Shown piece by piece: positions 24,869 through 61,960 of a stretch of DNA of 64,000 nucleotides (the stretch's first letter is position 1; every line of letters begins with the position of its first letter). The DNA is from a virus. Position numbers and translations under genes: made by a program. Location: UHGV virus genome UHGV-0351052. One strand, 5' to 3'. The notes beneath the pieces are model-generated. The model worked only from the letters and a program-made list of their open reading frames with translations. It did not search any database and was not told the DNA's origin.

Positions 24869-24886
24869 AAAGGGCCGAAGCCCTTA
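24869..24886 (-). terminator. hairpin with UUCG tetraloop (AAGGGC-CGAA-GCCCTT on plus)
   Basis: Minus-strand RNA forms a GC stem with UUCG loop followed by a T-rich tract. Confidence 0.4.
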
Positions 24887-29838: not shown

Positions 29839-31366
29839 CTACTGTTATCCATTTACCATTAATCTGTACCTCATCATTTTCATTTACGATAATTGTATCG
29901 CCATTTAGTTCGAAAGTAAACCACTCGCCATCTTCTTTTTCTTCAAACGCCTTTTCACCAAGAACTAGACCAGTGATTGCGCAAATATCAAATAGTTCTT
30001 TGTTTTTAAGCATATCTGCATAAGACATACCCCAACTGTTGAGAACTTTACCACGCAATGGATAACCACCATGAAGTTCTTTATCGCGAACATCAATAAG
30101 ATATCCGATAGCAGAATCACCCTCAGTCAAGAAAAGAGTAGTATCAGCATCTTTACCACAAAGGTTCGCTTTGATATGTTTATGAACCTTAGCTTTAGAA
30201 GCCTTTTTAGCTGCTTTAGTTTCTGCTGCTTTTTCTGCCGCCAATTTACGAGCTAATGCTGCTTCAATGATTGGCATCAGAATTGCTTCATTATTTAGAA
30301 TAGCACGTGAAATCTTTTTAGCGTCAAGTTGAATATGACTACGAATTTCGCCAAATGGAGAAGTCAAACGCTCTTTAGTCTGAGAATCAAATCGCATGTT
30401 TTTCATATCACGAACAAACATAACGATAGTCAAACATTCTTTGACACGTGCTTTAGTCACATCAATTTTGAACTTACGTTTGATTTGTGGAATAAGGTCT
30501 TCACAAATATCATCCATAACACAGTCAATGTGATGGCCACCATTCTTAGTATGAATGTTATTAACGTATGTTAATTGACGAAAACCATCCGGTGAACGAC
30601 CAACTGCAATAGAACAATTTTCTTGTTCTTGAACAATAGCATGCTCATCATATTGGCGTGCATATTTCTTAAAATTGCCCTGAACCTTTTTACCATTAAA
30701 GGTAAATTGAATATCAGGATAAACTACTGCAAGTGTCTGGAGACGATCTAGTGTAATGTCAAGATAAACTTGGGACAGCTCATTAGTTTCAAATGACATA
30801 AAATCAGGAATGAAAGTAACACGAGTTCCTTTCCATTTTCCAGGAATATCTTCCCATGATTTATTTTCCATGCCATTTGAACAACGAACTACAATATTAT
30901 TTTGACCATCGCCAGTTTCACCAACAAACATCACAGAAAAAATGTTTGTCAAACTAGAACCAACACCATTCATACCGCCAGTGACGCGTTCTTTATCATC
31001 ACCAAAGTTACCACCTGCTTTTGGAATAGTCCAGGCAGCAACAGGACCAGGAATTTCTTCACCGGTAGGTGTTTTAACCATCGCTTGTGGAATACCGCGA
31101 CCGTTATCTTCAACTGTTACTTGATTGTTTTTAATAGTAACATTAATTTTATTTGCGAATTTAAACTTAGTACGAATACCTTCATCTACTGAGTTATCGA
31201 TAATTTCATCAATAAGCTTAACAAGACCAGGTACATACTGAACACTTTCCCATTTACCAAACAGAAAGCGCTCATGCATTTCATTAGCGGAAGAGCCAAT
31301 GTACATGCCGCTACGCTTTTTGATATGTTCAATATCGCTCAGAATTTTAATTTCATTCTTAATCAT
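29816..31366 (-). CDS. 39: DNA topoisomerase II large subunit gp39 (516 aa; ATG at 31366)
   Basis: GyrB-type ATPase; ORF-track first codon is GTG, ATG follows a GAGGA ribosome site. Confidence 0.9.
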   Translation of the reverse strand: MIKNEIKILSDIEHIKKRSGMYIGSSANEMHERFLFGKWESVQYVPGLVKLIDEIIDNSVDEGIRTKFKFANKINVTIKNNQVTVEDNGRGIPQAMVKTPTGEEIPGPVAAWTIPKAGGNFGDDKERVTGGMNGVGSSLTNIFSVMFVGETGDGQNNIVVRCSNGMENKSWEDIPGKWKGTRVTFIPDFMSFETNELSQVYLDITLDRLQTLAVVYPDIQFTFNGKKVQGNFKKYARQYDEHAIVQEQENCSIAVGRSPDGFRQLTYVNNIHTKNGGHHIDCVMDDICEDLIPQIKRKFKIDVTKARVKECLTIVMFVRDMKNMRFDSQTKERLTSPFGEIRSHIQLDAKKISRAILNNEAILMPIIEAALARKLAAEKAAETKAAKKASKAKVHKHIKANLCGKDADTTLFLTEGDSAIGYLIDVRDKELHGGYPLRGKVLNSWGMSYADMLKNKELFDICAITGLVLGEKAFEEKEDGEWFTFELNGDTIIVNENDEVQINGKWITVGELRKNL

Positions 31367-31420: not shown

Positions 31421-31435
31421 AGGCCCGAAGGCCTT
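31421..31435 (-). terminator. hairpin AGGCC-CGAA-GGCCT (UUCG loop on minus RNA)
   Basis: GC stem plus flanking A/T runs. Confidence 0.4.
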
Positions 31436-52306: not shown

Positions 52307-55003
52307 TCAGCCAAACAGGAAGTCTAACGAAGCTTTTTCTTCATAGTCCATACCAGCCGATTCACACATGCCTGCAAGCGGTTTAACAAACGATTTTTGG
52401 AACAAAGTTGAGTGGTCAATCCAAGATAGTACGTCAGAACGAATTTCTTTTGGAAGTTCTGTACCAGACGGCCAAGCAATGCATTTGTCACCAAATGGAT
52501 TTCCTTCACGTAATGGAAGAACCATTACTTTATTTCCATCCAAAATTGGAGCTACACCCAGACCACTAACAGCTCGACGATAAGTTAGCACACCGCGAAT
52601 ATGGAACGGGCATTTAAATCCTGGCCAACCTTTATCATCATATTTCGCTATATCGTTCGCAGTTTTTACTTCAGCAATAACTTTATAGTCGAGTTGACGA
52701 TATTCTTTCTCGAAGTTCTTGTAGTATTCTTGGACAGACTCTTCGCCTTCCTGAAGAATACGACGAATACTTTCTTCGAGAGCTTCTTGCACTGCTTTTG
52801 GTGTTGAACTCTGCTGAGTTTCCATACCCATGATTTTTAGATGCGGTTCAGCAAATCGCTTATCTTCCATATCATAAACGTTCAGAGCATAACGCTTTTT
52901 CGCTTTCCAAAATCCACCAACGCCCTTTGAACCAAGTGGAGGACAAGAAATAGCTTCACGGTCCATATGCATCAGATGCTCGCGGTTATTCATATAATCA
53001 CATAACTCACGATATGCAACATCAATCATAGGTTCCATCTTTTTCTTACCGAACTGATTCATAAATTCAACCAAATCGTTCTGCTCTTTGAATCGGTCAA
53101 GACCAACTTTTTCAATAACTTTATCTACACAAACATATACCGAATCAGTATCACCTGCTGCGATAAAATCTTCACCATTAGTTCCGCATACTTTATTCAG
53201 ATATTCATTGATTTTACGAGCAATCCACTGAATACCGACTTGGCCAAAAATTGTGATAGCAGTAGCATTTCGCAAATCATAGTAACGGAAATGAATATTA
53301 CCAAGAGCACCATAAAGACTGTTAATGAGAATTTTACGGTTCAGCTGATTTGTGTTAGCAAGTGTAGCAGCTTTTTCACATTCCTCAATCAGACTATTGA
53401 GAACAGATTCAGTATAATTCGACAGTTCATTTAAGAAATCATCACTGAACTTAACATATCGTTCAACTTCTGGTTTAGTTGAACAAGACCCTGCGCCTTT
53501 CATAATAATCTTTTTAATAGCTTCGGCATTCATTTCTTCAGCGAACATTTTCTTTTTCCAGTCTTTACGCTGGAAAAATACTTTAGCGATTTCCTTTGGA
53601 ATGATACCTTCTTGATGCTTATCATACATCCATCCATTCGGAGAACAAGAATATTCTTCACTTGGCTTAGGAGCTGTTCCTGCGATATATTCATGGATTG
53701 GATGAACTTTAAATTGTCCACGAATAGTCTCAGGACTAATGTTAACCTGACGAATAATGCTCGGATACAGAGACGTCAAGTCAAAACTCATAATATATCG
53801 ACGAGCAATTGGTTTAGGTTCAAACACAAATGCACCCGGAAAACTCTGTTTAACGTGCGAACCTTGTTGAGGAATAACCTTATGTTCACCTTTCAATGAG
53901 TTAAAAATAATAGCATCCCAAGTTTTAATAGGACTCATTACACCGGAAAAAGGCATTTTAGCGTAATAAGACATACTTAAAACTAGATCGATAAACCCGC
54001 GAATTTTATCAATTGCTTGAACTGATTCTACGTCAATGATGTTATAACTAATGTATCGTTGATGATTAGTTTCACGAAGTTTATTAATAGGACCGTCGTA
54101 TGGTAATTTACCTTTTTTGGTTTCATGTTGAGCAACTGATTCCAAAGAGAATGACGGCAAATTAGTAAATGCGAACTTCTTGTACAAATCTAAATAATCA
54201 AGAATAGATACGCCATCAATAGAATAAATTTCTTTGCTACCGTACACATTTTGAATTAGTTTAGATTTTACTCGACCGATTGGAGAGAAGCGTTTCATAC
54301 TACGTTCACCGAGAACCATTTTAACACGATTCATGATATACGGAACGTCAAATCCCTCAATATTCCAACCGGTAAAAATAGCAGGTCGTTTCTGTTCCCA
54401 GAGATTAATATATTCCATGAGCATATCACGCTCATTATCAAATGGCATATAAATTACTCGGTCAAGAATTTCTTGAGGAACTTCATCACCACCTTCACAG
54501 TCAAGCTTAGCAGCTAACTTTGCATCCCATTTTGATACTGAACCGTACATTGAATTCAACAAATCAAAGACGTAAAAACGATCGTCAATTGAATCATAAT
54601 GAGTGATAGCATCAATTTCATATTCTGCTTTCATTGGGTCAGGAAATTTATCACCAGTAACCTCAATGTCGCAGTTAGCTACACGAACAAATTTTCGGTC
54701 ATAAACAATTTCTGAACCATATGTATCACTGATGTAAGCGAGTTTAAAATCGTTCATACCGAGAGCTTCGAGACCGATGTCTTCCATTCGCTTCATCCAG
54801 TCTCGTGCATCTTTCATTGATGGAAATTTTTGAGGAGCGCAGTTTTTACCATAGATGTCTTTGTATTTTGACTCTTCCTTACAATGTCTAAACATAGTTG
54901 GAAGATATTCTACTTCACGAGTACGTTCCTTTCCGTTTTCATCAATATAACGTTCAACAATGTTATTTCCGACTGTTTCAATAGAGATATAAAATTCTTT
55001 CAT
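52307..55003 (-). CDS. 43: DNA polymerase gp43 (898 aa)
   Basis: Family B polymerase; length equals T4 gp43. Confidence 0.95.
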   Translation of the reverse strand: MKEFYISIETVGNNIVERYIDENGKERTREVEYLPTMFRHCKEESKYKDIYGKNCAPQKFPSMKDARDWMKRMEDIGLEALGMNDFKLAYISDTYGSEIVYDRKFVRVANCDIEVTGDKFPDPMKAEYEIDAITHYDSIDDRFYVFDLLNSMYGSVSKWDAKLAAKLDCEGGDEVPQEILDRVIYMPFDNERDMLMEYINLWEQKRPAIFTGWNIEGFDVPYIMNRVKMVLGERSMKRFSPIGRVKSKLIQNVYGSKEIYSIDGVSILDYLDLYKKFAFTNLPSFSLESVAQHETKKGKLPYDGPINKLRETNHQRYISYNIIDVESVQAIDKIRGFIDLVLSMSYYAKMPFSGVMSPIKTWDAIIFNSLKGEHKVIPQQGSHVKQSFPGAFVFEPKPIARRYIMSFDLTSLYPSIIRQVNISPETIRGQFKVHPIHEYIAGTAPKPSEEYSCSPNGWMYDKHQEGIIPKEIAKVFFQRKDWKKKMFAEEMNAEAIKKIIMKGAGSCSTKPEVERYVKFSDDFLNELSNYTESVLNSLIEECEKAATLANTNQLNRKILINSLYGALGNIHFRYYDLRNATAITIFGQVGIQWIARKINEYLNKVCGTNGEDFIAAGDTDSVYVCVDKVIEKVGLDRFKEQNDLVEFMNQFGKKKMEPMIDVAYRELCDYMNNREHLMHMDREAISCPPLGSKGVGGFWKAKKRYALNVYDMEDKRFAEPHLKIMGMETQQSSTPKAVQEALEESIRRILQEGEESVQEYYKNFEKEYRQLDYKVIAEVKTANDIAKYDDKGWPGFKCPFHIRGVLTYRRAVSGLGVAPILDGNKVMVLPLREGNPFGDKCIAWPSGTELPKEIRSDVLSWIDHSTLFQKSFVKPLAGMCESAGMDYEEKASLDFLFG

Positions 55004-55042
55004 AGATATTCCTTAGTTTATAGCCCGAGTTATTAGGCTCTT
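55004..55042 (-). promoter_or_regulatory. gene 43 translational operator (hairpin with loop AAUAACUC plus Shine-Dalgarno)
   Basis: Minus strand: CAAGAGCCTAATAACTCGGGCTATAAACTAAGGAATATCTATG, matching the remembered T4 gp43 autoregulatory RNA site. Confidence 0.7.
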
Positions 55043-55063
55043 GATATATTATACTCCAAATAA

Positions 55064-55078
55064 GGGGCCGAAGCCCCT
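55064..55078 (-). terminator. hairpin GGGGC-CGAA-GCCCC (UUCG loop on minus RNA) between the 73-aa ORF and the 43 operator
   Basis: 5-bp GC stem followed by TTATTTGG. Confidence 0.5.
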
Positions 55079-55081
55079 TGC

Positions 55082-55303
55082 TTAAATTAGTACTATTTGC
55101 CGGGTGAAAATTGTCAATCCATCTGCATTAATTGACTTAACGACTGCTGTAAAATGTTTTTGTTCTGGATGAACTAGTTTTTGAAATTCTACCTGAAATT
55201 TTAGTTGGAGGTTTTCTGGTAAATCAAAAAGTGTTTCTGTTGCAGAAAGATTATATTTTTCTTTAAGAGACACCATGTATTCTTGCGGGGTTATAGCAGT
55301 CAT
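55082..55303 (-). CDS. hypothetical protein (73 aa) between regA and gene 43
   Basis: ATG at 55303 overlaps regA stop (TAATATG); encodes MTAITPQEYMVSLKEKYNLSATETLFDLPENLQLKFQVEFQKLVHPEQKHFTAVVKSINADGLTIFTRQIVLI. Confidence 0.45.
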   Translation of the reverse strand: MTAITPQEYMVSLKEKYNLSATETLFDLPENLQLKFQVEFQKLVHPEQKHFTAVVKSINADGLTIFTRQIVLI

Positions 55304-55304
55304 A

Positions 55305-55673
55305 TTAATTACCAATCGTATATTTAGGAACGAGTTTCCATTCATGTTTTTGTTTAAAAGAAATAACTCGGAAGTTATTAGTTAAATCTTTCATAAAAGT
55401 TCTTTGACCAGGGACGATTTCAATCAGTCCCCAATCTTCTAACAACCATGCAATCGAATCACGACGAACTTCATCTTCTTCTGTCATTTCAACTTGACGA
55501 CCATCCATACGAAGCATTTCTTTAAAATGGACGATATAGTATAGTCCTTTTTTCTGAAGAATATGACAGGACTGATACAGAACTTTATCTTTATTATTAG
55601 CAATTCCCATACGAGTCAAAGTTTCTTTTACTTTCAGAAAATCTTCAGGTTTTTTAAGAGTAATTTCAATCAT
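55305..55673 (-). CDS. regA: translational repressor RegA (122 aa)
   Basis: Length and sequence match T4 RegA. Confidence 0.9.
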   Translation of the reverse strand: MIEITLKKPEDFLKVKETLTRMGIANNKDKVLYQSCHILQKKGLYYIVHFKEMLRMDGRQVEMTEEDEVRRDSIAWLLEDWGLIEIVPGQRTFMKDLTNNFRVISFKQKHEWKLVPKYTIGN

Positions 55674-57199: not shown

Positions 57200-57231
57200 A
57201 ATTTCCTCATTCAAGTTTTAGTGTAAATTAT

Positions 57232-57249
57232 AAAGGGCCGAAGCCCTTT
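57232..57249 (-). terminator. hairpin AAAGGGC-CGAA-GCCCTTT between 45 and 44
   Basis: UUCG tetraloop on minus RNA; T-rich flank. Confidence 0.45.
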
Positions 57250-57250
57250 A

Positions 57251-61942: not shown

Positions 61943-61960
61943 AAAGGGCCGAAGCCCTTT
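61943..61960 (-). terminator. hairpin AAAGGGC-CGAA-GCCCTTT immediately after a-gt
   Basis: Same UUCG-loop hairpin family; overlaps the a-gt stop codon. Confidence 0.45.

Follow-up and report, generated by a model that had tools for sequence, protein, structure and literature searches.

The 64,000-nt stretch analysed here (the window) originates from a T-even (Tequatrovirus) phage genome, in which the replication cluster is located on the minus strand in the order 62-regA-43.1-43, with genes 62, 44 and 45 upstream of regA. This textbook locus comprises in T4 the clamp loader, RegA and the gp43 operator, the latter used in the first SELEX experiment. According to the ORF list, regA (55305..55673, minus strand) encodes the 122-aa translational repressor; it is 98.1% identical to T4 regA at the nucleotide level and is annotated as regA in the matching records. 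Gene 43 (52307..55003, minus strand, ATG at 55003) encodes the DNA polymerase of 898 aa and carries this annotation in all matching records. The interval between both genes spans 301 nt (55004-55304, minus strand). Read in the direction of transcription, the regA stop codon TAA (55305-55307) is followed by a single nucleotide at 55304 and by ORF 43.1 (55082..55303, minus strand), which consists of 73 codons plus TAA and encodes a protein of 8.4 kDa. Its start codon ATG (55303-55301) forms the junction TAAtATG, and its stop codon TAA (55084-55082) lies two bases before a hairpin, AAGGGGC-UUCG-GCCCCUU with a C(UUCG)G tetraloop and followed by AUUUGG (55062..55079, minus strand). Further downstream on the same strand there are a GGAG motif (55057-55054), a TATAAT -10 element (55053-55048) and the gene 43 translational operator with its leader down to the Shine-Dalgarno (SD) sequence (55004..55039). 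The latter region contains the operator hairpin AGCCU-AAUAACUC-GGGCU (55039-55022) and the gene 43 SD AAGGAA (55014-55009). The ORF abutting regA, the UUCG hairpin, the TATAAT element and the operator had all been listed by the first-pass annotation of this DNA and are present at these places on the minus strand.

Database searches revealed that the 73-codon ORF is the catalogued small gene 43.1, an already known family that many T4 relatives carry. It matches Pfam family PF25760 ("Phage RB18 ORF43.1 protein") with 102.3 bits compared to a cut-off of 27 (E 1.3e-29), with residues 5-73 covering positions 1-69 of the 69-position profile and thereby its full length, and PHROG 3826, a family of unknown function, over positions 1-73 of 73 (E 2.8e-37). 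The GenBank annotation in RB14 and RB51 is "RB32ORF047c hypothetical protein, similar to RB18 43.1", and the gene is also annotated in RB32; RB18 ORF 43.1 and RB32ORF047c (RB32/RB14) share both the position between regA and 43 and the length with the window copy. The window protein is 94-99% identical to those of approximately 178 database phages; a single substitution (V11 vs A11) separates it from the RB14 copy, with no further difference of substance. Six residues are invariant among 29 homologues (K14, L19, F26, D27, L28 and E30) and all are found in the window protein; Y17, Q33, Q37, P46, F51, G62, R68 and E72 are nearly invariant, with E72 replaced by L in the window allele. A search of the searchable literature for 43.1, RB32ORF047c or PF25760 retrieved no publication and likewise no proteomics or ribosome profiling. 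Some database entries (P0002, P0014, P0018 and P0021) start 43.1 inside regA, resulting in proteins of 85-87 aa and of 127 aa in phage KK4/GADU22. Starts of this kind (window 55304-55345, minus strand) are probably mis-called, as the extension is not conserved across alleles; the corresponding 87-codon frame starting at 55345 was rejected, as the added codons merely read the 3' end of regA in another frame and are not common to the RB51-type allele or to other genera.

The interval is considerably shorter in T4 and in RB69. In T4 (NC_000866) the regA end at 29972 and the gene 43 start at 29893 leave 78 nt between them, and in RB69 the interval has 81 nt with the layout regA TAA, GGGACUUCGGUCCC hairpin, GGAGTATAAT and operator. 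The statement of the first-pass annotation that this interval is short in T4 was borne out by the comparison. Both phages lack the ORF, and the regA stop abuts the hairpin directly, unlike in the window; T4 has an exact empty junction at this position. The 78 nt adjoining gene 43, from GCAAGGGGCTTCGGCCCC to the ATG, are identical between the window and T4 at every base and include the hairpin, GGAG, TATAAT, the operator hairpin with its AAUAACUC loop and the SD; the elements from hairpin to SD of RB69 are clearly homologous to the window copies. As revealed by side-by-side comparison, the sole difference between the window and T4 in the interval is an exact block of 223 nt (55082..55304, minus strand), composed of the 1-nt spacer and ORF 43.1 including the stop codon and located between the regA TAA and GCAAGGGGCTTCGGCCCC. 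This block is bounded by TTAA...TTAA direct repeats with a computed spacing of 223 nt. The interval had been described as containing an extra ORF and an extra terminator. The ORF is indeed additional compared to T4, but the terminator is not, since it belongs to the 78-nt block identical in T4 and is conserved in RB69 and in five other genera.

Among the available genomes the locus is a common three-state polymorphism, consisting of two alleles and an empty site, with T4 simply being one of the empty forms. A tblastn search with ORF 43.1 yielded 311 phage records, in which the identity to the window protein is at least 80% in 178 (at least 90% in 177) and below 60% in 133. Being a member of a catalogued family (PF25760) with more than 300 phage records, the insert is not unusual. 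Using ORF 43.1 plus flanks, a megablast search covered 505 T-even records. The window-type allele was found in approximately 178 of these, the exact T4-type empty junction in 224 (including T4, T2 and RB3/5/6/7/9/10/27/55/59) and the exact RB51-type junction, with a protein 44% identical to the window allele, in at least 54. The order regA-43.1-43 was observed in RB14 and RB51 and in all six Tevenvirinae genera sampled, i.e., Tequatrovirus, Kanagawavirus (represented by IME523), Moonvirus (CF1, also Moon, Merlin and KM16), Gaprivervirus (VR20), Dhakavirus (WG01) and Karamvirus (CkP1). In six of seven arrangements, those of the window and of the five other genera's representatives, 43.1 starts 0-1 nt from the regA stop, with the junction forms TAAtATG, TGAtATG, TAAtGTG and overlapping ATAATG; the seventh, RB51, has a 10-nt spacer. 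In the five other genera, 2-5 nt separate the 43.1 stop from a hairpin with a UUCG or UACG loop, after which come a TATAAT-like element and an operator hairpin.

The RB51/wV7-type gene occupies the same slot and belongs to the same family as the window copy, and its downstream hairpin, promoter and operator are almost the same, with differences limited to the bases right behind the stop codon (TAAAGCAAAGGGGC in RB51 vs TAAGCAAGGGGC in the window). It encodes 78 aa and is preceded by the 10-nt spacer with an own AAGG SD, in contrast to the 1-nt spacer of the window, while the upstream regA is 98.9% identical to the window copy at the nucleotide level. Comparing RB51 (L003, 1443-1689) with the window (55082-55304), a sharply bounded allelic replacement becomes apparent; RB51 regA is 100% identical to that of RB14 at the nucleotide level. 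A profile search of 1.84 billion representative proteins retrieved only nine matches, eight of them small phage proteins, of which five had already been found as family members, and the family therefore appears to be confined to Tevenvirinae and to the regA-43 slot. The ninth match, P0033, is a repetitive protein of 3009 aa in which 49 short stretches align to profile positions 37-68; it is assumed to be a repeat artefact.

Several observations indicate that 43.1 is a genuine protein gene. A frame of this length was open in only 70 of 20,000 shuffles of the same bases and is hence improbable as a chance product of this base composition. The close alleles of the window, RB14, fPS-65 and DalCa differ by 5-8 synonymous vs 0-1 non-synonymous substitutions, corresponding to a dN/dS of 0.03-0.05; for VR20 vs WG01 a dN/dS of 0.20 was obtained, and more distant pairs gave 0.2-0.4 with dS being saturated. 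Judged by these substitution patterns, 43.1 is under purifying selection with a dN/dS of 0.03-0.2. An AlphaFold2 model calculated from the homologue alignment has a confident fold (pLDDT 90.3, pTM 0.74), predicted to consist of two helices (residues 6-16 and 30-44) and a beta-hairpin (strands 50-58 and 64-72), and the product is slightly acidic (pI 5.0-6.6; about 6 for the window ORF). Judged by the signature of purifying selection together with the confident predicted fold, the ORF therefore evolves and folds as a protein. The first-pass annotation had made its reading dependent on the absence of the ORF from T4 and on its translation; T4 lacks it, the dN/dS among the close alleles points to translation, and 43.1 is very probably translated.

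Translation of 43.1 is most likely coupled to that of regA. Stop and start codon are one base apart at 44/62 (TGAtATG), at 62/regA (TAAaATG) and at regA/43.1 (TAAtATG), and owing to this shared geometry 43.1 is most likely read by reinitiating ribosomes. For the T4 clamp-loader cistrons 44/62, which have the same stop-start spacing as regA/43.1 in the window, coupling was shown and measured experimentally (Torgov et al., 1998, as cited in PMC2988022), whereas for regA/43.1 it is deduced from the geometry. Mechanistically, the clamp/clamp-loader/regA transcription unit (45-44-62-regA-43.1) would have 43.1 as its final cistron; ribosomes would terminate on regA and then reinitiate on 43.1, to which a weak GGU(A)AU SD-like sequence inside the last regA codons might contribute, and the unit would end at the CUUCGG hairpin. 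The coupling is not obligatory because the RB51-type allele has its 10-nt spacer with an own AAGG. A RegA target in the AU-rich region at the 43.1 start was considered and rejected; in a comparison done by hand, agreement with the RegA SELEX consensus was limited to approximately 8 of 15 positions.

The two hairpins preceding gene 43 were supported by covariation across the six genera, with 93.9% of the cells paired and 5 of 12 pairs changing on both sides; none of 500 shuffles reached the observed score and sliding the partners by one column collapsed the signal. For the CUUCGG hairpin (helix 1) 98% of the cells are paired and three of seven pairs change on both sides. It forms a stable 7-bp stem; a simple terminator scan made no call because the U-tract is interrupted (UUAUUUGG), and the corresponding hairpin in phage DalCa is annotated as rho-independent terminator. 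The 45-44-62-regA(-43.1) transcription unit likely ends at this hairpin as a putative terminator, and through read-through a part of the gene 43 mRNA may carry 43.1 as a longer leader. An Rfam search gave a sub-threshold chance match over the hairpin and nothing else.

In the whole window there are five C(UUCG)G tetraloop hairpins (GGNCTTCGGNCC; 24872-24883, 31422-31433, 55065-55076, 57235-57246 and 61946-61957), all on the transcribed minus strand, compared to 0.01 expected by chance. These are T4-type intercistronic CUUCGG hairpins and the hairpin between regA and 43 is one member of this set. Between genes 45 and 44 (approximately 57215-57250, minus strand) a hairpin AAAGGGC-UUCG-GCCCUUU runs directly into a TATAAT (TAATAAAGGGCTTCGGCCCTTTATAATTT), and the cassette architecture between the clamp gene 45 and the clamp-loader genes is the same as upstream of gene 43.

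The TATAAT or a close variant is kept across genera, and Yersinia phage fPS-65 carries the annotation "predicted middle promoter" on the equivalent bases GCTTCGG...TATAAT. T4 MotA-dependent middle promoters contain a MotA box (tGCTTtA) centred near -30 in combination with a TAnnnT -10 element at a canonical spacing of 11-13 nt. In the window the only GCTT near the -10 element belongs to the hairpin loop (GGCTTCG) and precedes TATAAT by 15 nt, more than the canonical distance, and a sigma-70 scan found no -35/-10 pair at this site. The GGAG between hairpin and -10 element (55054-55057), the motif of the RegB endoribonuclease, is conserved in T4, RB51, RB69, IME523 and WG01 and is not found in CF1, VR20 and CkP1. 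RegB processing was reported to stimulate gp43 synthesis and this GGAG could be the processing site behind that stimulation (reviewed in PMC3014915 for the stimulation). The operator consists of a 5-bp stem and the 8-nt loop AAUAACUC upstream of the gene 43 SD and AUG and shows compensatory changes across genera. The operator hairpin and its overlap with the ribosome-binding site are described in the same review (PMC3014915); for the window operator, binding and repression by gp43 would follow from its 100% identity to the T4 operator. In RB49 and phi1, promoter-early stem-loop (PeSL) cassettes flanking gene 43 were proposed as recombination substrates (Arbiol et al., 2010, PMC2839356). The window cassette, composed of the CUUCGG hairpin and the predicted middle-type promoter, can be likened to PeSL by its architecture, as both have a stem-loop followed by a promoter and border gene 43 and small uncharacterised ORFs.

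Compared to its neighbours, 43.1 diverges rapidly. Between genera the identity amounts to 32-53% for 43.1 vs 74-86% for RegA, and between the window and RB51 43.1 is 44% identical with RegA and the N-terminal 400 aa of gp43 being 100% identical. Diverged alleles on identical RegA and gp43 therefore indicate that 43.1 is a fast-evolving cassette, which is exchanged through its conserved flanks. The gene is moreover, as far as can be read from the genomes, dispensable, because an in-frame stop at codon 41 (Q41) is present in the Citrobacter phage PhiZZ23 (L013, 151-372), for which the first 40 codons are annotated, and because shorter database entries of 55 aa and 40 aa exist; the 224 empty junctions and RB69, which lacks the gene, also count. 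The PhiZZ23 gene represents a natural knockout in a viable phage.

How the empty site arose is suggested by the bases at the junction. The T4 sequence following the stop (GCAAGGGGC) matches the window-type allele and not the RB51 type (AGCAAAGGGGC). As a deletion between the two TTAA copies yields the exact T4 sequence and as GCAAGGGGC matches, loss in the T4 lineage is favoured, and a deletion there is most likely, rather than an insertion in the window lineage. Accordingly worded as a mechanism, 43.1 would be old in Tevenvirinae and the T4-type phages would have lost it by precise deletion between the two TTAA repeats; recombination through the conserved flanks could reinstall it at the empty site in individual lineages. 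Conversely, 43.1 might have been inserted recently, as a mobile ORFan or 'moron' cassette, into a T4-like regA-43 junction that was empty from the outset, and have spread among phages by recombination in the conserved regA end and the hairpin/promoter cassette, with T4 representing the ancestral state. Exchange clearly happens, as seen from the 44%-identical alleles on backbones with 100% identical RegA and gp43 N-terminus, the identity of 43.1 is untied to that of gp43 or RegA (correlations of -0.02 and 0.29), two distant lineages are empty (T4-type and RB69), and the stem-loop/promoter cassettes of the RB49 type flanking gene 43 offer proposed recombination substrates (PMC2839356). However, a recent insertion is unlikely: the gene occupies the exact same slot, 0-1 nt from regA, in six genera, it has no own endonuclease, promoter or repeats beyond the 4-bp TTAA, and no homologue elsewhere was found in the 1.84 billion representative proteins, which leaves neither an outside donor pool nor a sign of mobility. 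Parsimony furthermore favours one ancient gain and few losses, in agreement with an old gene that was deleted in the T4 lineage.

Concerning the function of 43.1, the searches revealed no relative with a known role, neither by structure nor by sequence. Foldseek against BFVD retrieved family members only and an uncharacterised protein of Edwardsiella phage PEi26, a profile search of PDB sequences with 43.1 gave no significant match (best E-value 0.41), and PADLOC assigned 43.1 to no family. The idea that the invariant LFDLPE is a clamp-binding (LDFLF-like) motif was considered and discarded since the residue order differs from the C-terminal SLDFLFG of gp43. The protein is too small and featureless for an enzyme and catalytic features are absent. 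Its small size, the lack of catalytic features, the quick evolution and the occurrence of two alleles besides an empty site make a binding factor the most likely role; tentatively, 43.1 might be a non-essential accessory factor that binds a variable host or phage partner and is made together with RegA. It was also considered that the invariant placement itself, coupled to the regA stop and with the end of 43.1 only 2-5 nt from the hairpin, is functional, with 43.1 partnering or modulating RegA or the autoregulation of gp43 and with the two alleles and the empty state representing alternative replication-expression settings or a countermeasure to a host factor. This is quite improbable; if true, the two alleles and the empty state would tune the expression of replication genes among otherwise identical T-even phages.

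The first-pass annotation further suggested that the insert could alter polymerase expression. This suggestion found no support, as the hairpin, the predicted promoter and the operator are all located downstream of the 223-nt block and are unchanged. The -10 element, the operator hairpin and the SD of gene 43 remain those of T4, and with the control region identical to T4 the autoregulation of the polymerase should be unchanged, leaving no basis for an effect on expression. The insert might nevertheless act in cis on gene 43, if the longer spacer alters transcriptional read-through, the processing of the RNA or the folding of the operator. Transcripts that read through from upstream promoters would gain 223 nucleotides, the minimum-free-energy fold pairs some 3'-terminal bases of the ORF with the leader, and the upstream RNA context could matter for RegB processing, which stimulates gp43 (PMC3014915) and for which a GGAG is present between hairpin and operator. 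Yet no base differs from T4 between the start of the hairpin and the gene 43 ATG, the fold of the region is no more stable than that of shuffled sequence (z = -0.68), the hairpin and the operator each fold locally, with a covariation that is independent of the ORF, and the sequence of 43.1 evolves as a protein with a dN/dS much below 1 and not as a spacer, which renders an action in cis very improbable. Hardly credible at all is a chance or decaying open frame without translation. It would agree with the ORF being short, AT-rich and without a strong SD of its own, with the truncated versions (PhiZZ23 and the 55-aa and 40-aa entries) and with the many phages that do without it. Against it, only 70 of 20,000 shuffles keep such a frame open, the protein and its invariant residues are conserved in six genera, synonymous substitutions strongly predominate and the structure is predicted with high confidence.

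As a whole, the locus is best explained, with a probability of roughly 0.8, by 43.1 being a dispensable and fast-evolving last cistron that is coupled to regA, was lost by T4-type phages with the control of the polymerase unchanged and may encode a binding factor. As the locus is well known and 43.1 is a named Pfam/PHROG family annotated in hundreds of genomes, the presence of the ORF in the window matters little by itself. The reference phage T4, however, is without a gene found widely across its subfamily, and T4-based maps therefore under-describe the operon. The clean natural three-state polymorphism on near-identical backbones makes the phenotype of 43.1 easy to approach by crosses or competition.
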